Positions 6,776 through 21,544 of a DNA stretch of 21,544 nt are shown in pieces (position 1 is the first letter of the stretch; the number at the start of each line of letters is the position of its first letter). Origin of the DNA: a bacterium (lineage in GTDB: Bacteria > Cyanobacteriota > Vampirovibrionia > Gastranaerophilales > JBAXKC01); assembly GCA_037137535.1 (NCBI GenBank), contig JBAXKC010000043.1, forward strand, positions 1 through 21,544. Reading direction: 5' to 3'. The position numbers were made by a program, and so were the translations under genes. Under the pieces are notes generated by a model that ran no database searches, was not told where the DNA came from, and saw only the letters and a list, made by a program, of their open reading frames with translations.

Positions 6776-9700
6776 TTACGCTCCAACGTTATTCAACCTT
6801 TGATAATACCACTTCTCTACTTCTTTACGCTTAACTTTTCTTGTTGCAGTTTTTGGTAATTCTTCAAGGTTAACCGTAATAACTGTCGGGCATTTATAAG
6901 AAGCAAGTTCAGCTTTTGCCTGTTTATTTACTTCTGAGGTAATAATTTTTTCTAATTCTTTAGGATTGTGCTGATATTGTTTAACTAAGTCATCGGAGGG
7001 AACTATAACGGCACATACTTCTTCTGTTCCGTCTTTTGCTCCGCCCTTAATTTTAACGCTCATAACGCATAGTTCTTTGATTAGTTCATTTTTGGATAAG
7101 GTTGCTTCGACTTCTTCGGGGAATATTTTCTTTCCTCCGCCTAAAACAATCATATTTTTAATTCGACCTGTTATATAAAGGAATCCGTCCTTGTCAAACT
7201 CTCCAATATCGCCTGTATGAAACCAACCTTCTTCATCTATTACTTCTGCGGTCATTTGAGGATTGTTGTAATAGCCTTTCATTAAGTTTGGACCTTTAGT
7301 TAAAATTTCACCTTCTTCTGAAAGTCTTATGATCACACTTGGAAGAGGTTTTCCTACAGAGCCGATGCGATTATCTTCGGGCGTATTTGTAGTTATTGAC
7401 GGGCTTGTTTCTGTCAATCCGTAACCTTGATAAATTGGAATTCCAATTCTTTCAAAGAATTCTCCTACTTCTGTTTCTAGTGGCGCACCGCCGCAGACAA
7501 AGCCTTTTAATTTTCCGCCAAAACCTGCAATAACTTTCTTAAACATAATTCTTCTAATGTGAATAGGCATGTATTTTGCAATTTTATACATAAATTCAAA
7601 GAGGTTTTGAGCTGTTTTATCTGATTTGCGAATTTCTTTTTCTACGCTGTTTTTAAGCATTTTTACAAAAAGCGGAACGACAATCATATATGTTGCCTGT
7701 CTTTCCTTCATAACTTTGCCGATTTCTTTAGGATTTAAGCTTTTGCAGTATGAAACTCTAGCTCCCATATAAAGCATTCCAAGAAAGCCGACATTCAGCT
7801 CTAAAAGGTGATTTAAAGGTAAGATTGAAACAAGAGAATCATTGGAATTGATTTTAAATACTGATTCAAAATCTTTTAATTGGGCGATAATATTTCCGAA
7901 AGTTATCATAACTCCTTTTGGATTACCTGTTGTGCCTGATGTATAGATAATTAAAGCTGTTTCGTCAAGTGTTCTGTCTCTTCCAATATCGCCTTGCGGA
8001 GCTTTTAGTTCATAAACAGATCTAAATTCACAACTTTGCGGTTTTTCTTCTATTACGAAGATATTTTCTATTGAAGGTATATTTTTTTGTAATTCTTTAG
8101 CTGTCTCAATATAATGTGCGGAAACGCATAATATTTTTGGTAAACAATCTGACAAAATAGAAATTAATTCAGCGTTAGTCAGCTTTATATCAAGCGGAAC
8201 GGTTATTGCTCCTGTCTGTATGGATGCAAATAAAGCAATTCCCCACTCTGGTCTTGATTCTGATAAAATAGCAATTTTATCGTTTCTTTCAAGTCCGTTA
8301 GCGATTAAATAATTTGCAAAGTTTTTTGCCTGTCTTGAAAGTTCAATGTAGCTTAATTCTTTCCAGCTGTCTTTATCTTTAAGTGATAAGGCTTTAACAG
8401 GTCCGTGGATGTCGCCTTTAAACTGCATTAGGTCAAGCACGTTTTCATAATCAGTTTTAGCTGCTTTTATTTTTTCTTTTCTTTCAATAGAATCCTTCAT
8501 AAATTGAACTCTGTCTTTGAGTTCATCAACAACGTTATCTTCCAGGTTGTAGATAGGTTGCCCGAATTGAATAGTGATTTTCTTGAATGTAGGAAATAAT
8601 TTATTATAAGCCCAAGCTTCAAAACCGCCGTGAATTACAAACGGAACTATGGGAGTGTTGCTGTTTTTTGCCATATAAGCAACGCCTTTGTTGAATTTGT
8701 TCAGTTTCCCGTCAGTAGTTAATTTCCCTTCGGGAAATATACAAAGGACTTCACCTTTTAATAGTTTTTTAACGGCAACATCAAGGGCTTCAACTCCTTT
8801 TCGAGGTTTAATTGCTATTACGTTAAAATAGTTTATGATTAACCTTATTACGGGAAGATTAAAGGCAACTTCGCCTGTGATAAACCATATCGGTCTTTTA
8901 CAGGCTACTTGAAGTATTAAAGTGTCAATCCAGCCTGTATGATTACCTGCAAGTATCATTTTACCGCTAGTTTTAAGATGTTCTCTTCCTTCAATTTTTA
9001 TTGGAAAGAAAACTCTAAAAATACTGCCAAATGTTGTACGTACTAAAAAGTGACGGAATGGGCTGTCAAAAAGTAACACAATAAGCGCCATTGAAAAACT
9101 TAATGCGGAAACGCTTTTAAATACATTAATCGGGCTTTTAATTGTCAAAACTTCGGATACAATCCACATTGTAGCTAGAAATGCACCTGTTGTAACGGTT
9201 GAGCGGAAACCGAAGATTTTTCCTCTTAATCTGTCTGGGGTTACTTTTTGGAGAATTGTATCTAATGTAATTAAAATAATAGAATTTGCAATTCCTATTA
9301 AAACCAGCCAGCCCCAAGCCATTGAATAAGTTTTTACAAGCTGAGCCGTTGCTGTTGTAAGGAAAATAGCAAGAAATGAGCCTGCGAGCAAATAAGAAAT
9401 TCTGATATATTTGCTTAAATACAAGGTGATTAATGTTCCCAATATCATTCCCACTCCAAGCATTCCTTTGAGTTTGCTTACTCCCGAAATTCCGATTTTA
9501 AAATAGTCGGTAGCTAGAGCGTTCATTGAATTGAAAAATGATGCTGTAATTAAGGACAAAGCGACTGATAGAAGAATTAATCTTAAAGTTTTTTTATGTT
9601 TTTTTAAATAAGCTAAAGTAAATCCAAAATCTTTAAATACGGTGTTATAAATACATTTGCCTACGCAGATTGTTGTATGTTTGCCAAGCTTCAAAAGTGA

Positions 9701-10282
9701 TGCGAATAAGGCTGAAATAATATAAATAAAACCGTTTAGGAATAAGCCGTTAGCTAAGCCTATTTTGTTGATATAAATTCCTGAGATTATCGCTCCTAAA
9801 AGGATTGCGATAGTTGCTGTTCCAGAATTTAAAGCATTGGCTAATTGTAAATGTTCTGATTTTACAATGTTTGGCAGGGTACTTTGTTTTGCAGGATAAT
9901 AAAAAGCAGAACCGATTCCCATTAAAAATGAAAACCCGTATATTGAAAAATTGGTATCTGCGATTATAATGGTATTTTTGAATAAAAAGGCAGGAATAAT
10001 AAAGACTAGAAGGGCCCTATAGGCATTACTGCACACCATAATCCATTTGCGGGAAAATCTGTCGGCAATACCCCCCGCTAAAGGACTTAGTAAGAGAGAA
10101 GGCAACATGAAGAAAAACAGAATTTTTGCCATTTCAGAACCGGCTTTTTGTGAAAAGCTTATCACCCAACTCATTAAAGCAATTTGAATAATGGAATCTC
10201 CTAAATAAGAGCAAATTTGCCCCAGCCATAATTTAAGAAATTCTTTGTTTTTAAATAAATTCGTAAATTTAATCTGCTTCAC
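6776..10282 (-). CDS. Three-domain fusion, 1168 aa: MFS transporter + PlsC-type lysophospholipid acyltransferase + AMP-forming long-chain acyl-CoA/ACP synthetase (LplT/Aas-like lipid salvage)
   Basis: GTG start with AGGAG at 10291-10295. MFS motif A is GGIADRFSRK. Acyltransferase motifs are NHTGWID (HX4D) and IFPEG. Adenylation motifs are YTSGTTGNPKG, GYGLTE, GWFHTGD, ITGRIK and LPKTATRKVKR. Confidence 0.92.
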   Translation of the reverse strand: MKQIKFTNLFKNKEFLKLWLGQICSYLGDSIIQIALMSWVISFSQKAGSEMAKILFFFMLPSLLLSPLAGGIADRFSRKWIMVCSNAYRALLVFIIPAFLFKNTIIIADTNFSIYGFSFLMGIGSAFYYPAKQSTLPNIVKSEHLQLANALNSGTATIAILLGAIISGIYINKIGLANGLFLNGFIYIISALFASLLKLGKHTTICVGKCIYNTVFKDFGFTLAYLKKHKKTLRLILLSVALSLITASFFNSMNALATDYFKIGISGVSKLKGMLGVGMILGTLITLYLSKYIRISYLLAGSFLAIFLTTATAQLVKTYSMAWGWLVLIGIANSIILITLDTILQKVTPDRLRGKIFGFRSTVTTGAFLATMWIVSEVLTIKSPINVFKSVSALSFSMALIVLLFDSPFRHFLVRTTFGSIFRVFFPIKIEGREHLKTSGKMILAGNHTGWIDTLILQVACKRPIWFITGEVAFNLPVIRLIINYFNVIAIKPRKGVEALDVAVKKLLKGEVLCIFPEGKLTTDGKLNKFNKGVAYMAKNSNTPIVPFVIHGGFEAWAYNKLFPTFKKITIQFGQPIYNLEDNVVDELKDRVQFMKDSIERKEKIKAAKTDYENVLDLMQFKGDIHGPVKALSLKDKDSWKELSYIELSRQAKNFANYLIANGLERNDKIAILSESRPEWGIALFASIQTGAITVPLDIKLTNAELISILSDCLPKILCVSAHYIETAKELQKNIPSIENIFVIEEKPQSCEFRSVYELKAPQGDIGRDRTLDETALIIYTSGTTGNPKGVMITFGNIIAQLKDFESVFKINSNDSLVSILPLNHLLELNVGFLGMLYMGARVSYCKSLNPKEIGKVMKERQATYMIVVPLFVKMLKNSVEKEIRKSDKTAQNLFEFMYKIAKYMPIHIRRIMFKKVIAGFGGKLKGFVCGGAPLETEVGEFFERIGIPIYQGYGLTETSPSITTNTPEDNRIGSVGKPLPSVIIRLSEEGEILTKGPNLMKGYYNNPQMTAEVIDEEGWFHTGDIGEFDKDGFLYITGRIKNMIVLGGGKKIFPEEVEATLSKNELIKELCVMSVKIKGGAKDGTEEVCAVIVPSDDLVKQYQHNPKELEKIITSEVNKQAKAELASYKCPTVITVNLEELPKTATRKVKRKEVEKWYYQRLNNVGA

Positions 10283-14153: not shown

Positions 14154-14468
14154 TTTATCCACAAACAGGAACAAATGTATTATTAATCTTTATTAGTATT
14201 TATAAAAACTAGAATGAGAATTTAATATTAAATTATATGTAAATAATGAAAAATATATTTGTAATTATTAACAGCTCTTAATAAATTGCAAATAGGCTTT
14301 TTAGTGAAAATTTAAGCTATATAAACGTTTTCATGCGTATTGCCTGATTTTAATTGCCTATACTATTTAGTGGTTGCTGTTACGGTTGTAGTTATGGTAG
14401 ACTGCCACAGATGGATGAATAGTCCAAAGTATTATCGGTAAAGCAATAAACTATTTAGGAGATTAAAG

Positions 14469-17400
14469 ATGCCAGTTAATTTGTATGAAAACGAGAATCC
14501 TTCAGTTTATAAATATACTTATGAATATGGAAGATTTAATGAACTTTTAAGTGAGAAAGAATACAGCTTAGATGGATCTACTTTAATCTCAGAATCTAAA
14601 TACACATATAATTATAATGCAGATAATACTTTGGTTTTAGTTGAAGCACACAAAGATATTTATAATGATGATATTAAAACAGCAGTAATCAAATATGAAT
14701 ATAATGAAAGTGGAGATGCAGTTACTAAGGAATCTTATTTTAATTGTGATCCTAAATTAGGGTTATTACCTACTTATATTAAGCATTTGGACGAAAATGG
14801 AAATGTAATTTCTTCAGAATATCTTAGTAATCGCTTTGACGAAAACGGAAATATAATTTCTTCTACAATGTACGATAATTTAGAGCTTTTAGCTAATTCT
14901 GAATTAATGGGAAATGTTAAAGATATAGCAACTGCCGGTTTAGCGGCAGCAGTTTCAGCTGAAGATTTAACTCATACAGCTTTAGAAAATGCTACAACTG
15001 CTAAAAATAATGCTATTGCTACTGCTGCCGCTACACAAACAGCTTTAGAAAATGCTACAACTGCTAAAAGTGAAGCTATTGCTGAAGCAGCTACGACGCA
15101 AACAGCTTTAGAAAATGCTACCTCTGCTCTTGCGACAGCAACTTCAAATGCAACAGCAACTGAAACGGCGAAAATTAATGCTACAACTGCAAGAACTAAT
15201 GCAATTGAAGCGGCAGCAATTACGCAAACCGCTTTGGATAATGCAACAACTGCGAAAACAAATGCTATTGCTGCCGCTTCAGTTACCCAAACCGCTTTAG
15301 ATAATGCTAGCTCTGCTCTTGCAACAGCAATTGCAAATGCAACAGCAACTGAAACTGCGAAAAATAATGCTACAACTGCAAGAACTAATGCAATTGCTGC
15401 TGCTGCAATTACACAAACAGCGTTAGATAATGCTACCTCTGCTCTTACATCTGCAACTTCAAATGCAACAACAACACAAACAGCATTGGATAGTGCCACA
15501 ACTGATAAAAACAATGCTATTGCTGCTGCTGCAGTTACACAAACAGCTTTAGAAAATGCTGCCACTGTTAAAAATAACGCTATAGCTGCCGCTGCAGTTA
15601 CGCAAATCACTTTAGAAAATGCTGCCTCTGCTCTTGCAACAGCAATTGCGAATGCAACAGCAACTGAAACTGCGAAAACTAATGCTAATACTGCAAGAGA
15701 TAATGCTATTGCTGATGCTGCAATTACGCAAACAGCTTTAGATAATGCTACATCTGCTCTTGCAACAGCAACGTCAAATGCAACAGCAACTGAAACTGCG
15801 AAAATTAATGCTACCACTGCGAAAATTAATGCTATTTCTGCTGCTGCAATTACGCAAACAGCTTTGGATAATGCAACAACCGATAAAACTAATGCTATTA
15901 CTGCCGCTGCAGTAACCCAAACAGCTTTAGATAATGCTACCTCTGCTCTTGCAACAGCAACTTCAAATGCGACAGCAACTGAAACTGCGAAAACTAATGC
16001 AACAACTGCAAGAACTAATGCTATCGCTGCTGCCGCAGTTACGCAAACCGCTTTAGATAATGCTGTCTCTGCTCTTGCAACAGCAACGTCAGATGCAACA
16101 GCAACTGAAACTGCGAAAATTAATGCTACTACTGCAAGAACTAACGCAATTGCTGCCGCCGCAGTTACTCAAACCGCTTTGGATAATGCTATAACTGCTA
16201 AAAACAATGCAATAGCTGATGCCGCAGTTACTCAAACAGCTTTAGATAATGCTACATCTGCTTTAGCTTCAGCTGTTACAAATGCCGGAACTACTCAAAC
16301 TGCATTAGATAATGCTACTACTGCTAAAAGCAACGCTATTACAGCTGCAGCTACTGCCGCTTTGGCTCTTACGAACGATGCTACTAATATATCGCTTATT
16401 GCTGCTAAACAAGCGGCAGATGCACTTGTAGTAACAAAAACAAATGAATTAGATGCCCTCAGAACACCGGAATACCTTGCGGCTCTTGCCTTAAAAGAAG
16501 AAGCTGTTGCAGCTGCAGTAATAACAAATAATGCATTAGTTGCAGCAACATCAGCTCATGATGCTGCTGTCGCGGCAGCCGCAGCTACTCAAACAGCCTT
16601 AAATAATGCAACAACTACATGGGGTAATGCCGTAACAGCAGCAGCACTTACAGAAACAGCTAAAATTAACGCTGCAACTGCATTAAGTGATGCCGTAACA
16701 GCAGCAGGAATAACAGAAACAGCTAAAACTAATGCCACAACTGCATTAAGTGATGCCGTAACAGCGGCAGGAATAACAGAAACAATTAAAACTAATGCCA
16801 CAACTGCTCGTGACACAGCTGTTACTGCTGCGGCATTAACTGAAACAGCGAAAACTAATGCTGTAAATGTCTGGAATGATGCTGTAGCAGCTGCAGTAGC
16901 CACTCAAACAGCAAAAGATAATGCTGTTACTGCCTTATCAACTGCAAACACAAATGCTGCAACTGCATTAACAGCAATGAATAATGCCACAACTTTATTA
17001 AATAATGCAATTGCTGCTGCCAATAACACTGAAGCTTCAAAAGTTGCAGCAACAAATGCAAAAGTAACTGCAGTTGCAAATGCTGCAACTGCATTAGCAG
17101 CAAAAAATGCTGCAACTACTGCAAAAGCTGATGCAGTTGCAGCAGCTGTAATCACTCAAAATGCTGTAAATACTGCAACTACTGCAAAATCAGATGCAGA
17201 AGCAGCCGCCGCATTAACTCAAGCAGATGTAGACGTTGCTTCGTTAGCCTGGAACAATGCTGTAACTGGTGCAGCAACGGCCGCAAGTAATCTTGCTGAT
17301 GATCCTTCAAATGTAACTCTTCAAACGGCAAAGGATAATGCTGATGCTTTAGTTGTCTCTACATTAGCGACTTTAACAAATGCAACAACCATTGATGATG

Positions 17401-20400
17401 CTTATGATGCTATAGTTGTAACAAAAACAGCTGAATTAGCCGCTGCCGTAGCGGCAGATAATACAGCTGATGCACTGGTTATAACAAGAAACTCTCAATT
17501 AGCAACTGCAAATACAGCATTAACAACAGCAAATGCCTTAGTAACAAGTAAAACTAATGCTTTGAATATGGCTATATCAATAGATAATGTAACTGATGCT
17601 TCAGTTATAACAAGAGCTAATGAATTAAATACCGCTACAACTGCATATAATACAGCAACTGCTTTAGTTACAACAAAAACAAATGAATTAACTACTGCCA
17701 CATCAGCAGATGATGCTGCAGATGCTCTAGTCGCTACTGACTTAACTGCCAAAAATGCTGCTATATCAGCAGATAATGCAGCTGATGCTTTAGTTACAAC
17801 AAGAAATAATGAATTAAGCGCAGCTACAACAGCAGATACAACAGCTGATGATTTAGTCGCAACAAGAACAAGTGAGTTAAATACTGCTACAACAGCAGAT
17901 ACAACAGCTGATAACTTAGTAACCACAAGAACTACAGAATTAGCGACAGCCACAACAAATGATCAAAATGCTGACGCTTTAGTTGTTTCAACATTAGCTA
18001 CAAAAGTAAGTGCTACCAATGCCGATAATACAGCTGATGGTATAGAATCATCAACAAATGCAACATTAATAAGCGCTACTGCTGCAGATAATGCAGCTGA
18101 TACTCTGGTAACAACAAGAACCAACGCAGTAAACGCTACAATCTCACCGGAAGCTATAGCCGCAGGTGAAGCGCTAAATTCAGCAATCAATGCCGCTGCA
18201 ATAACTCAAACTGCAAAGAATACAGCAACAACAGCATTAGCAACGGCAATTTCAAATGCGACAGCTACTGAAGCTGCTAAAATTAATGCTACAACTGCTC
18301 GTGATGCAGCTGTTACAGCTGCGGCATTAACTGAAACAGCAAAAAATGATGCGGATACAGAATGGAATAATGCAGTTTCAGCAGCTGTAATAACTCAAAC
18401 GGCAAAAGACAATGCTACAACTGATTTAGCAACCGCAACTAATGCCGCAGCCGCTACTCAATCTATAAAAGATACGGCAGTAACTGCACTTGCAAATGCT
18501 GAATCTGCAGCTGCTATAACTCAAACAGCTAAAGATAATGCTACATCAGCACTTACATCAGCAACAAATAATGCTGCTATAACTCAAACAGCAAGAGATA
18601 ATGCCATAGCTGCTTATAATAGTGCTGTATCAGCAGCAGCTACAACCCAAACTGCCAAAGATAACGCTACAACTGCTTATAATAATGCTGTTTCATCAGC
18701 AGCTATTACTCAAACAGCTAAAGATGCAGCCAGTTCAGAGCTGGCAACCGCAGTATCAGCTGCTATTGTAACTCAAACCGCTAAAGATGCGGCAGTTGCT
18801 GCATTGGCAAGTGCAAATACTAGCGCAGCAGCAACTGAAACTGCTAAAATAGCTGCAAATACAGCATTAACAACAGCAAATACTAATGCCGCAGCAACGG
18901 AAACCGCAAAAAACAATGCAATAACGGCTTATAATAATGCTGTCACTGCTGCTGCAGTTACAGAAACAAATAAAACAAATGCAAGTTCAGATTTAGATGC
19001 TGCAGTTGCGGCAGCGGCTACTACTCAAGCAACTAAGGACGCAGCCAGTACTGCTCTTAGTTCTGCAGTTACAGCAGCAGCTGCTACTCAAGCTACAAAA
19101 AATACTGCAACTTCTGAATTAACCGCCGCTACAAATGCGGCTCTTGAAACTCAAGATGCTAAAGATGCTGCAACATCAGCATGGAATGATGCAGTCTCCT
19201 TTGCCGCATTTACACAAACCTCAGTAGATGATGCAACAATAGCATTAAATAGTGCAAATACTGCAGCGTCAGATGCAGCAGCTGCATTAGTAGGTCATGA
19301 ATCTGATGCGGGGCTTATTGCCGCAAAAGCAGCAGCTGATGATCTTGTTATTTCTGCAACAGCTGATCTTACAAATGCTACAACAATAGATACTTTTATG
19401 GATTCATTGGTTTCTACAACAGCATCAGATTTAACAGCGGCAACAAATGCTGATGATGCGGCGGATGCTTTAGTTTTAACAAAAACTACTGCATTAACTA
19501 ATGCCACAAATGCTGATGATACTGCGCAGGCTTTAGTTGCAACAAGAACAACCGCTTTAACTAATGCTACAAATGCAGATAATACTGCAGATGCTTTGGT
19601 GGTAACAAGAACAACCGCTTTAACCAATGCTACAAATGCAGATAATACTGCTAATGCCTTGGTTACCTCAACATTAGCCGCTAAAAATGCTGCAATAACC
19701 GCAGATAATACTGCTGATGCTTTAGTTGTTACAAGAACAAATGAATTAACTGCGGCAACAACAGCAGATACAACAGCTGATAACTTAGTCACAACAAGAA
19801 CTACTGAATTAGCTACTGCAACAACAGCAGATAATACAGCCGATGCTTTAGTGGTAACTAAAACCACTGCTTTAAATAATGCAACTAATTCTAACAACGT
19901 ATTAGAGGGTTTAGTTTCAGCAAGAGCTGCTGACTTAGCAACTGCGACAACTAATGATAATAATGCGGATGCGTTAGTTGCCTCTAGGTTAGCCACAAAA
20001 AATACGGCAATATCAACAGACGATATTGCAGATGCATTAGTTACAACAAGAACCTCTGAATTGACAACTGCGACAAATAATGATAATACAGCAGATGCTT
20101 TGGTTACAACAAGAACTAATGAATTGGCAACGGCCACAACTAACGATAATATTGCAGATGCGTTAGTTACAACAAGAACAAATGAATTAGCTACTGCCAC
20201 AACTGCGGATAATACAGCAGATGCTCTAGTTGCAACTAAATTAGGACTATTAAATGCTGCTATTAGTGCTGATGATACAGCAGATGCCTTGGTTGTAACT
20301 CGAAATAATCAACTGACTACAGCTACAAATACTGATAATACAGCAGATGCGTTGGTTGTAACTCGAAATAATCAACTGACAGATGCTACAAGTGCCGATG

Positions 20401-21544
20401 ATGTAGCAGATGCCTTGGTTGTAACAAGAACAAACGAATTTACTGCATTGACAACAGGAGGAGGACTTGCAAGCGCTGAAACCGCAATAGCAACTGCCGA
20501 AACGGCATTAGTAAATGCCCAAACAGCTGCAACTACAGCTGCAGACGCACTTGCAAATAATGCTGATGTAAATGCATTGATTGCCGCAAAAGCTACAGCA
20601 GATACATTAGTTGTAACAACAACAACAGCATTTAATAATGCTCAAACAGCAGATACAACAGCTGATAATTTAGTCACAACAAGAACAAATGAATTAGCTA
20701 CTGCAACAACAGCAGATAATACAGCTGATGCTTTAGTTTCATCAACAACTGCTACATTTGATGCAGCAGTAACAGCCGATACAACAGCAGATAACTTAGT
20801 CACCACAAGAACAAATGAATTAGCTACTGCAACAGCAGACGATACAACCGCAGATAACTTAGTCACCACAAGAACAAGTGAATTAGCTACTGCAACAACA
20901 GCAGATAATATAGCAGATGCTTTAGTTACAACAAGAACAAATGAATTAGCTACTGCGACAACCGCAGATAATATAGCAGATGCTTTAGTCACAACAAGAA
21001 CAAATGAATTAGCAACTGCGACAACAGCCGATAATACAGCTGATGCTTTAGTTTCATCAACAACGGCTACCTTTGATGCAGCAGTAACAGCAGATACAGC
21101 AGCAGATGACTTAGTCGCAACAAGAACAAGTGAATTAAATGCTGCGACAACAGCAGATACAACAGCAGATAATTTAGTCACAACAAGAACAAATGAATTA
21201 GCTACTGCGACAACAGCGGATACAACAGCAGATAATTTAGTCACAACAAGAACAAATGAATTAGCTGCGGCAACAACAGCCGATACAACAGCTGATAATT
21301 TAGTTACAACAAAAACTAATGAATTAGCCGCAGCTACAACCGCAGATACAGCCGCAGATAATTTAGTTTCATCAACAACTGCTACATTTGATGCTGCATT
21401 AACCGCAGATACAAGCGCAGATGATCTAGTTTCATCAACAACTGCTACATTTGATGCTGCATTAACCGCAGATACAACCGCAGATGATCTAGTAACAACA
21501 AGAACGACTGAACTAGCTACGGCTACAACTAATGATCAAAATGC
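14469..21544 (+). CDS. Giant Ala/Thr-rich 21-aa-repeat coiled-coil protein, at least 2358 aa, 3' end outside the window (absent from the ORF track)
   Basis: AGGAG at 14457-14461 and ATG at 14469. Manual translation stays open in one frame from MPVNLYENENPSVYKYTYEY to ...ATATTNDQNA at the window end. It was probably omitted from the track because it has no stop codon. No signal peptide. Confidence 0.95.
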   Translation, partial: MPVNLYENENPSVYKYTYEYGRFNELLSEKEYSLDGSTLISESKYTYNYNADNTLVLVEAHKDIYNDDIKTAVIKYEYNESGDAVTKESYFNCDPKLGLLPTYIKHLDENGNVISSEYLSNRFDENGNIISSTMYDNLELLANSELMGNVKDIATAGLAAAVSAEDLTHTALENATTAKNNAIATAAATQTALENATTAKSEAIAEAATTQTALENATSALATATSNATATETAKINATTARTNAIEAAAITQTALDNATTAKTNAIAAASVTQTALDNASSALATAIANATATETAKNNATTARTNAIAAAAITQTALDNATSALTSATSNATTTQTALDSATTDKNNAIAAAAVTQTALENAATVKNNAIAAAAVTQITLENAASALATAIANATATETAKTNANTARDNAIADAAITQTALDNATSALATATSNATATETAKINATTAKINAISAAAITQTALDNATTDKTNAITAAAVTQTALDNATSALATATSNATATETAKTNATTARTNAIAAAAVTQTALDNAVSALATATSDATATETAKINATTARTNAIAAAAVTQTALDNAITAKNNAIADAAVTQTALDNATSALASAVTNAGTTQTALDNATTAKSNAITAAATAALALTNDATNISLIAAKQAADALVVTKTNELDALRTPEYLAALALKEEAVAAAVITNNALVAATSAHDAAVAAAAATQTALNNATTTWGNAVTAAALTETAKINAATALSDAVTAAGITETAKTNATTALSDAVTAAGITETIKTNATTARDTAVTAAALTETAKTNAVNVWNDAVAAAVATQTAKDNAVTALSTANTNAATALTAMNNATTLLNNAIAAANNTEASKVAATNAKVTAVANAATALAAKNAATTAKADAVAAAVITQNAVNTATTAKSDAEAAAALTQADVDVASLAWNNAVTGAATAASNLADDPSNVTLQTAKDNADALVVSTLATLTNATTIDDAYDAIVVTKTAELAAAVAADNTADALVITRNSQLATANTALTTANALVTSKTNALNMAISIDNVTDASVITRANELNTATTAYNTATALVTTKTNELTTATSADDAADALVATDLTAKNAAISADNAADALVTTRNNELSAATTADTTADDLVATRTSELNTATTADTTADNLVTTRTTELATATTNDQNADALVVSTLATKVSATNADNTADGIESSTNATLISATAADNAADTLVTTRTNAVNATISPEAIAAGEALNSAINAAAITQTAKNTATTALATAISNATATEAAKINATTARDAAVTAAALTETAKNDADTEWNNAVSAAVITQTAKDNATTDLATATNAAAATQSIKDTAVTALANAESAAAITQTAKDNATSALTSATNNAAITQTARDNAIAAYNSAVSAAATTQTAKDNATTAYNNAVSSAAITQTAKDAASSELATAVSAAIVTQTAKDAAVAALASANTSAAATETAKIAANTALTTANTNAAATETAKNNAITAYNNAVTAAAVTETNKTNASSDLDAAVAAAATTQATKDAASTALSSAVTAAAATQATKNTATSELTAATNAALETQDAKDAATSAWNDAVSFAAFTQTSVDDATIALNSANTAASDAAAALVGHESDAGLIAAKAAADDLVISATADLTNATTIDTFMDSLVSTTASDLTAATNADDAADALVLTKTTALTNATNADDTAQALVATRTTALTNATNADNTADALVVTRTTALTNATNADNTANALVTSTLAAKNAAITADNTADALVVTRTNELTAATTADTTADNLVTTRTTELATATTADNTADALVVTKTTALNNATNSNNVLEGLVSARAADLATATTNDNNADALVASRLATKNTAISTDDIADALVTTRTSELTTATNNDNTADALVTTRTNELATATTNDNIADALVTTRTNELATATTADNTADALVATKLGLLNAAISADDTADALVVTRNNQLTTATNTDNTADALVVTRNNQLTDATSADDVADALVVTRTNEFTALTTGGGLASAETAIATAETALVNAQTAATTAADALANNADVNALIAAKATADTLVVTTTTAFNNAQTADTTADNLVTTRTNELATATTADNTADALVSSTTATFDAAVTADTTADNLVTTRTNELATATADDTTADNLVTTRTSELATATTADNIADALVTTRTNELATATTADNIADALVTTRTNELATATTADNTADALVSSTTATFDAAVTADTAADDLVATRTSELNAATTADTTADNLVTTRTNELATATTADTTADNLVTTRTNELAAATTADTTADNLVTTKTNELAAATTADTAADNLVSSTTATFDAALTADTSADDLVSSTTATFDAALTADTTADDLVTTRTTELATATTNDQN
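14970..16355 (+). repeat. Block A1: 22 x 63-bp type-A repeats (T[QE]TA[LK]xNATTA[KRL]xxAIAAAAx)
   Basis: Exact 63-bp period. Three subtypes: a = TQTAL..K, b = TQTAL..SALATA, c = TETAK..R. Order is a a b c a b c b a a b c b c a b c b c a b a. Confidence 0.92.
16467..18146 (+). repeat. Internal module 1: about 13 type-A repeats (16467-17279), turn (17280-17339), about 13 type-B repeats ADxLVxTRTNELxxATTADxx (17340-18146)
   Basis: Manual translation and unit counting. Bounded by TPE (Pro 16467) and SPE (Pro 18147). Confidence 0.9.
18147..20456 (+). repeat. Internal module 2: about 18 type-A repeats (18147-19274), turn (19275-19334), about 18 type-B repeats (19335-20456)
   Basis: Manual translation and unit counting. 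Ends at a GGG linker (20457-20465). Confidence 0.9.
20598..21544 (+). repeat. Block B4: at least 15 x 63-bp type-B repeats, continuing beyond the window
   Basis: ADNLVTTRTNELATATTADTT-type units, with Phe variants (mostly VSSTTATFDAA) at units 1, 3, 8, 13 and 14. Confidence 0.92.

Follow-up and report, generated by a model that had tools for sequence, protein, structure and literature searches.

A giant, probably RTX-type protein of a gastranaerophilalean bacterium with a predicted nested, branched coiled coil inserted in a split beta domain

Introduction

The 21,544-nucleotide stretch of DNA analysed here (the window) is the entire contig C43 of a 2.95 Mb genome of the order Gastranaerophilales, and it closes with a giant open reading frame (ORF) that is still open at the contig end. 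The encoded protein carries blocks of tandem 21-residue units of two types, A and B, arranged around short turns. Some of these blocks lie next to a partner of the same length. The outermost two, A1 and B4, do not, and they are separated by more than 4 kb of gene. The question that this locus raises is how such a chain folds, and in particular whether its two distant ends meet.

Several known systems bear on this question, as described in the available text of the sources cited. RTX exoproteins are secreted by type I systems (reviewed in PMC3034196), and in RTX adhesins, such as AhLap, small ligand-binding domains bud from "split" domains (PMC12077191). The RTX adhesins are defined by a retention module together with Ig-like extenders, and retention modules can be missed (bioRxiv 2025.09.30.679566). 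Enterococcal PrgA has a length of 38.5 nm, and its authors described it as the longest two-helix coiled coil reported from bacteria up to that time (bioRxiv 10.1101/2020.06.18.156562). In designed coiled-coil origami, identical modules can be reused because folding follows the shortest chain distance (PMC7878764).

Here, we report a computational analysis of the gene, its probable continuation on a second contig, its repeat layout, the pairing of its blocks and their predicted structure. The gene product is probably a type I-secreted RTX protein in which a branched, intramolecular, antiparallel coiled coil of ~2,390 residues is inserted in a loop of a beta domain.

Results

The gene and its surroundings

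The features of the locus on which the analysis rests are as follows.

14458..14463, + strand: Shine-Dalgarno-like AGGAGA, read from the sequence, with the ATG 5 nt downstream
14469..21544, + strand: giant ORF, 2,358 aa, 3' end open at the contig end
14469..14882, + strand: residues 1-138, the putative N-terminal half of an RHS/YD-like beta domain that the repeats split, by match to a paralogue on contig C18
14907..16370, + strand: A1, 23 A-type 21-residue units, the first degenerate; predicted outgoing strand of the stem, ~72 nm
16371..16466, + strand: turn 1 and the short B1 helix (node); the turn is homologous to turns 2-4, and the segment is rich in bulky hydrophobics
16467..18146, + strand: arm 1, comprising A2 (276 aa, starting at PE), turn 2 and B2 (276 aa); ~41 nm
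17295-17318, + strand: turn 2, within arm 1
18147..20456, + strand: arm 2, comprising A3 (381 aa, starting at PE), turn 3 and B3 (381 aa); ~57 nm
19290-19313, + strand: turn 3, within arm 2
20457..20576, + strand: GGG break, short A4 helix and turn 4 (node)
20577..21544, + strand: B4, predicted to return along the stem; 15 units lie in the window, of an estimated 23

From residue 147 onward, the protein consists of 29% Ala and 22% Thr. Pfam and NCBIfam place zero families on the 2,358-aa part, and no signal peptide is apparent at its N-terminus by reading. A promoter scan returned 4 sites against 3.2 expected, none of them on the + strand. The stretch is present in five metagenome runs from freshwater or lakes, belonging to three studies, with run X5 containing only a small share (0.12) of its words.

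Elsewhere in the window, the - strand encodes a chemoreceptor (151-2778) whose dCache sensor spans residues 145-373 and is flanked on each side by ~110-120 apparently helical residues, like a periplasmic stalk under the sensor; this gene adjoins one for an ABC substrate-binding protein. A single 1,168-aa protein (6776-10282, - strand) fuses MFS, acyltransferase and AMP-binding domains and is presumably Aas-like.

Repeat layout of the insert

The block order that had been read from the letters, A1-turn-short B1-(T)PE-A2-turn-B2-(S)PE-A3-turn-B3-GGG-short A4-turn-B4, is present in the sequence, and inside every block the motif anchors recur in an unchanging 21-residue phase. The unit counts required adjustment: A1 contains the 22 regular units expected and, in addition, a degenerate 23rd at residues 147-167, and the helices of the two arms, which had been given 13 and 18 units, comprise 12+1 and 17+1 units each once the turn is taken as the centre. 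The helices are exactly equal in length about the turns (276/276 residues for A2/B2 and 381/381 for A3/B3), and all four turns are homologous to one another. At 0.1485 nm per residue, the computed lengths are 72 nm for the stem and 41 and 57 nm for the arms; the earlier estimates were ~70, ~40 and ~55 nm.

Ala is invariant at positions A8, A15 and A19 (51/51 A units) and at B15 (44/44 B units), Thr occupies position A1 in 49/51 A units, and Asp occupies B19 in 41/44 B units. The conserved face is broad, including positions 1, 4, 5, 8, 12, 15, 16 and 19. The hydrophobicity period of the B blocks peaks at 3.5; that of the A blocks peaks at the edge of the scan (4.2), so the heptad assignment of the A blocks rests on the invariant positions. 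Several helices of the node contain up to 7.7 bulky residues per 21, compared with 3.4 in regular units, as would befit the core of a small bundle. The arm tips are bare 8-residue turns that carry no domain.

Probable continuation of the gene on a second contig

The ORF most likely continues on contig C46 (C46:3-5522, 1,839 aa), which opens in frame with four B units followed by a beta-rich region, RTX repeats and a secretion-type tail. In a search of the genome contigs with the repeat profile, C46 was the only match besides the window contig. The join rests on unitig depths rather than on a spanning read: in run X1, which is probably the source sample, no piece spans the gap between the two contigs, and the junction contigs are readable. 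One of these (depth 29, with the gene at ~22) loops from 21542 back to 21480, and a second (depth 24) enters a unit of the unit-15 type via a different codon and leaves into a unit with Phe at position 12 (Phe-12). Together, they imply three copies of the unit-15 type and therefore Phe at B4 unit 18, as had been predicted. The end of the depth-24 contig and the start of a node of depth 61 fall at the same unit offset; this node is the C46 head unit, present in three copies. From these contigs, our best estimate is that B4 has 23 units, the same number as A1, that the gap measures 245 nt and that the complete protein has ~4,280 aa; the ~22 units originally expected would then be one short.

In favour of the join, a 93-nt contig of run X5 departs from the window letters at 8 positions, a number that the periodic C46 unit reproduces, three listed places included. 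An X1 contig of depth 3 that matches window positions 16416-16440 and 21417 onward contains a full B-type unit with Tyr-12 that is absent from the window, possibly from a rarer relative with homologous repeats in the same water. A contig of run X2 lacks one A1 unit (63 nt; window 14975-15039), perhaps as an artefact of the graph; this skip was left unused, as 31 letters can be placed on either side of it. A short contig of run X4 shows a 6-nt insertion in the N-terminal domain (14524) and has loose ends, so it may come from another organism.

A beta domain split by the repeats

The segments on either side of the repeats match adjacent parts of one protein. Residues 1-138 encoded in the window align with residues 2-135 of a paralogous RTX protein encoded on C18 (39% identity, E 2e-16), and the part of C46 right after B4 aligns with its residues 140-357 (32%, E 4e-18), in an alignment that extends into the first RTX repeats. 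In the paralogue (C18:49784-55009), the beta domain, which is termed RHS/YD-like here on a weak profile match, is unbroken; a second, similar beta-rich block lies near residues 520-800 of that protein. The repeat module of ~2,390 residues occupies the place of four paralogue residues. Because the insert replaces four residues of one domain, the start of A1 and the end of B4 would be neighbours if the domain folds, and, with neither block having a local partner, A1 would then pair with B4. The reasoning does not draw on the repeat statistics, and it lends support to the join to C46 as well. Relatives of the beta domain were found in 0/400 genomes of the class, and a search among proteins of 579-2,000 aa returned the C18 paralogue itself only.

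On the C46 part, PF00353 RTX repeats are recognized with E 1.8e-123 in 22 stretches, which count for this protein only if the join holds; overall, Pfam finds RTX and one weak RHS repeat only. Given the join, the product would be a type I-secreted RTX exoprotein. The tail of C46 resembles, by reading, the ends of several other RTX ORFs in the genome, which contains 11 RTX-bearing ORFs. Exporter components of the HlyB/HlyD type (TIGR01846 and TIGR01843, over the cut-off) are encoded at two loci, on C1 and C5, neither of which adjoins the gene.

The same genome contains further giant exported-type RTX ORFs at C2:136781-149131 (at least 4,117 aa) and C20:16915-25125 (2,737 aa), as well as a haemagglutinin-like ORF at C20:2-8314 (at least 2,771 aa) whose terminal repeats reappear at the start of C44 (C44:3-1637). 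At C36:16660-17814 (- strand), a HlyD-like match is interrupted by two TAG stops.

Two assignments within the RTX proteins were considered and rejected. The definition of an RTX adhesin of the LapA/MpIBP type does not apply: a search for the N-terminal retention module NF033682 found it neither in the genome (0 matches) nor on the protein, and the repeat region is helical rather than made of tandem Ig-like extenders. The protein shares with these adhesins a module projecting from a split domain, and the projected module is not a known ligand-binding domain. As to an RTX toxin, a serralysin or an EglC glycanase, Pfam finds no catalytic domain, and the NCBIfam matches are many short stretches over the repeats, with the EglC profile exceeding its cut-off (729.9 vs 700) through 18 short stretches in the repeat part.

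Lys and aromatic residues as probable marks of the register

The original prediction had derived the pairing of A1 with B4 from a mirrored placement of Lys and Phe codons. All ten codons that it named are correct, with five AAA Lys and five TTT Phe. Among the 15 B4 units in the window, 5/5 Phe-12 units face A1 units with Lys at position 12 (Lys-12), a residue carried by 6/15 of the A1 units opposite (p 0.002 at fixed register and 0.015 when any register or orientation is allowed; 5,000 shuffles). With B4 at 23 units, 7/7 aromatic units face one of the 9 Lys-12 units of A1 (p 1.5e-4), and a count one unit lower or higher matches 5 to 7 of the 7; the Lys of A1 units 9 and 21 lies opposite no aromatic residue. 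Beyond the window, Phe had been forecast not only at unit 18 but also at units 21 and 22. Unit 21 has Leu instead; unit 22 is aromatic, with Tyr in place of Phe. Taken alone, these predictions outside the window are weak (p = 0.107).

The arms bear the same Lys/aromatic pair with the roles swapped: Lys is on the A helix in the stem, and the aromatic residue is on the A helix in the arms. In arm 1, the Trp-12 units 1, 7 and 11 of A2 lie opposite the Leu-9 units 1, 7 and 11 of B2 (3/3 among 12); in arm 2, 3/3 Leu-9 units lie opposite aromatic-12 units, which make up 5/17; and 4/4 arm B units with Lys-12 are opposite Trp or Tyr. In a scan of 234 combinations of blocks, orientation and offset, first, second and fourth place go to the three native antiparallel registers (shuffle p, corrected for register, 0.015, 0.009 and 0.037), and third place to a parallel A3/B3 register, slightly above the native one (p 0.011 vs 0.015). 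These marker p values are optimistic because the features were picked after looking, and when all position pairs are tested without such a choice, the result is borderline (family-wise p 0.047, 0.020 and 0.050; 300 shuffles).

Similarity of whole units is not significantly mirrored (Mantel test; r 0.17 and p 0.059 for the stem, and values close to zero for the arms at the register in use for this test). Set against the matches of the marks, this weak mirror indicates that the signal resides at a few interface positions and does not reflect a shared duplication history. Side-chain volumes are best balanced in the antiparallel orientation, one heptad off the register first assumed (sd 21 vs 45-60 for parallel), which leaves the axial register defined to about one heptad.

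Predicted structure of the arms and topology of the chain

For a 272-residue piece of arm 2 (A3/B3), modelled with the other three turns supplied as alignment rows, AlphaFold2 gave two helices broken at turn 3 (pLDDT 97.2, pTM 0.69), a confident model in which the fragment folds as an antiparallel hairpin. Among 48,161 chains of solved structure, the folds nearest to the model are antiparallel two-helix coiled coils: PrgA (6Z9L; Z 13.9, rmsd 6.2, 258 aligned), SMC (5XG2; Z 13.4, rmsd 2.9), the colicin hairpin (2YSU; Z 12.6) and a chemoreceptor (2CH7; Z 11.4), where Z values for long helices reflect a common arrangement only, not kinship. For the colicin E and ROP hairpins, the middle of the aligned stretch falls at residues 113-115 of the model, which is the predicted turn. 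Foldseek returned zero matches at E 0.001 or better. A stalk of a trimeric autotransporter or of a phage tail fibre was rejected: the model is a hairpin, the tail is of RTX type, and the phage searches returned no match.

The split beta domain, the matching unit count, the role-swapped marks in the arms and the confident hairpin model of arm 2 all support the nested topology that had been proposed, in which A1 would pair with B4 while two hairpins close locally, and which we hold to be highly probable. Every A-type helix would pair with a B-type helix, A2/B2 and A3/B3 closing at their turns and A1/B4 joining across more than 4 kb of gene to form a ~72 nm stem with its base in the beta domain. 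A small helical node would be built from B1, A4, the turns and the helix starts capped by PE, and the occasional Lys/aromatic pairs at position 12 would mark the register.

The same pairing is compatible with a shape other than an open Y, which we consider unlikely but worth weighing: the two arms could lie side by side as a four-helix bundle of ~41 nm. The molecule would then resemble a tuning fork or be a single rod, and four-helix bundles may also arise by dimerisation of stems or of entire molecules, as they do in chemoreceptor hairpins. If each break reverses the direction of the chain, the eight helices would form an up-down node from which both arms exit on the same side; the cytoplasmic domains of chemoreceptors are among the closest folds, and the conserved face is broad. 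However, no A2-B3 or A3-B2 covariation appears in any of the 234 registers, the arms differ in length by five units, all blocks are net negative with outer faces of Thr, Asn and Asp, and the stem, built from the same repeats, has only two helices per chain.

A1 and B4 might instead pair between molecules by domain swapping, linking chains into a mesh or sheath. The 1,400 residues that separate the two blocks, the interchangeability of the A and B modules in consensus and the period during export in which B4 would be exposed unpaired leave room for such exchange. It is nevertheless improbable, with both ends of the insert tied to halves of one beta domain, which favours closure within the chain, and with coiled-coil origami folding by the shortest intra-chain distance, according to the available text of PMC7878764.

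Finally, it is very improbable that the marks arose by chance or as a by-product of repeat expansion, that the join to C46 is wrong and that the region is an ordinary low-complexity helical linker, as could be argued from the weak whole-unit mirror, the post hoc features, the failure of the searches to return a homologue, the join made without a spanning read and a single-sequence AlphaFold2 model of 796 residues that is helical but of low confidence (pLDDT 52.5) and unusable for topology, because evidence resting on different data agrees: the beta domain is split, the helices are equal in length, the markers match in three separate cases, and the read graph gives a consistent unit count.

Homologue searches

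Homologues of the repeats were found in 0/300 genomes of the order and 0/40 relatives. Of 400 genomes searched across the phylum, the one that matched contains, on inspection, an unrelated repeat, and all seven phmmer matches among 1.84 billion representatives are low-complexity look-alikes on reading. Word-index protein searches for the repeats, contig scans (metagenomes, genomes and viruses) and tblastn against phages each returned 0; the best score of an Atlas search with the repeats was 0.75. In the literature searched outside subscription journals and supplements, a nested branched coiled-coil layout was not found described for any natural protein, and the available text of a review of appendages (PMC7616799) and of a survey of giant genes (bioRxiv 2023.11.21.568195) contains no such layout.

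Discussion

The nested architecture is well supported, and the protein that contains it appears to be an RTX exoprotein of a variant not found in the searches made here. With RTX exoproteins and adhesins, as far as the available descriptions of these go, it shares nonapeptide repeats, a module budding from a split domain, a putative secretion-type tail at the C-terminus and HlyB/HlyD genes elsewhere in the genome. It differs from the adhesins in that the split domain is RHS/YD-like and the budding module would be a 2,390-residue branched coiled coil.

Type I export proceeds with the C-terminus first. Folding would accordingly begin with the RTX roll and the second half of the beta domain; B4 would emerge and wait while arm 2 and arm 1 zip from their turns; and A1 would finally zip down B4 starting at the node, with the first half of the beta domain closing last and locking the base. 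The swapped Lys/aromatic marks may add discrimination between stem and arms during this process. On balance, we favour the view that the protein is a natural coiled-coil tree, whose single chain folds in the manner of an RNA multibranch loop to give a ~130 nm forked fibre, in which the swapped pairs would act as compensatory register marks that prevent mispairing during export.

Long antiparallel two-helix geometry is shared by SMC arms, the receptor-binding hairpins of colicins and chemoreceptor hairpins, all of which are unbranched and lack tandem 21-residue repeats. Small branch points or branched fibres occur in the ClpB middle domain, the dynein stalk and buttress, the streptococcal antigen I/II stalk and tetrabrachion, which variously have two hairpins per chain, a stalk from distant segments or a long branching stalk; they are, however, far shorter, or pair a helix with polyproline, or consist of several chains. 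To our knowledge, none of these four is a nested single-chain tree of tandem repeats.

PrgA is the top fold match to arm 2; by the available account, it too is an extracellular two-helix stalk formed by distant N- and C-proximal segments, as proposed here for A1 and B4. However, PrgA is unbranched and has a globular CAP head, whereas the present protein would have a ~72 nm stem and two further hairpins; the similarity is one of fold. A CAP head and a cell-wall anchor of the PrgA type are absent from the 2,358-aa part by Pfam and NCBIfam, and the tips are turns. Designed coiled-coil origami, as presented in PMC7878764, likewise shapes a single chain through long-range pairing of modules, but it is artificial, with short modules that form polyhedral cages, whereas the present protein is natural, far larger and tree-like.

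As for function, we favour a mechanical role because the tips are bare, the surface is acidic and Thr-rich, and a retention module was not found. The molecule could tentatively be a slender, ~130 nm bristle or spacer with a forked end, borne by the cell surface or the matrix and serving as a steric shield, a source of drag or a scaffold for adhesion. Partial accounts of other systems offer functional parallels only. The giant exported surface proteins SwmA and SwmB of Synechococcus have been linked to motility and grazing defence (PMC4949707); these giant exported proteins belong to planktonic cyanobacteria, and the likeness is one of function, by analogy. Pili raise drag and aid escape from predation (PMC7994388), which is again an analogy.

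RTX adhesins, as described in the sources available, gain their reach from Ig-like domains arranged in strings; the long two-helix coiled coils of bacteria that the fold search returned are unbranched. If the reading proposed here is true, the surface appendages of bacteria would gain a new structural class, its stem almost double that of PrgA in length, and the protein would be a natural counterpart of designed coiled-coil origami at a far larger scale, built with a simple two-module A/B pairing code that has its own register marks. It makes testable how like modules escape mispairing during vectorial secretion, and the A and B modules could serve as parts for long rods and three-way junctions.
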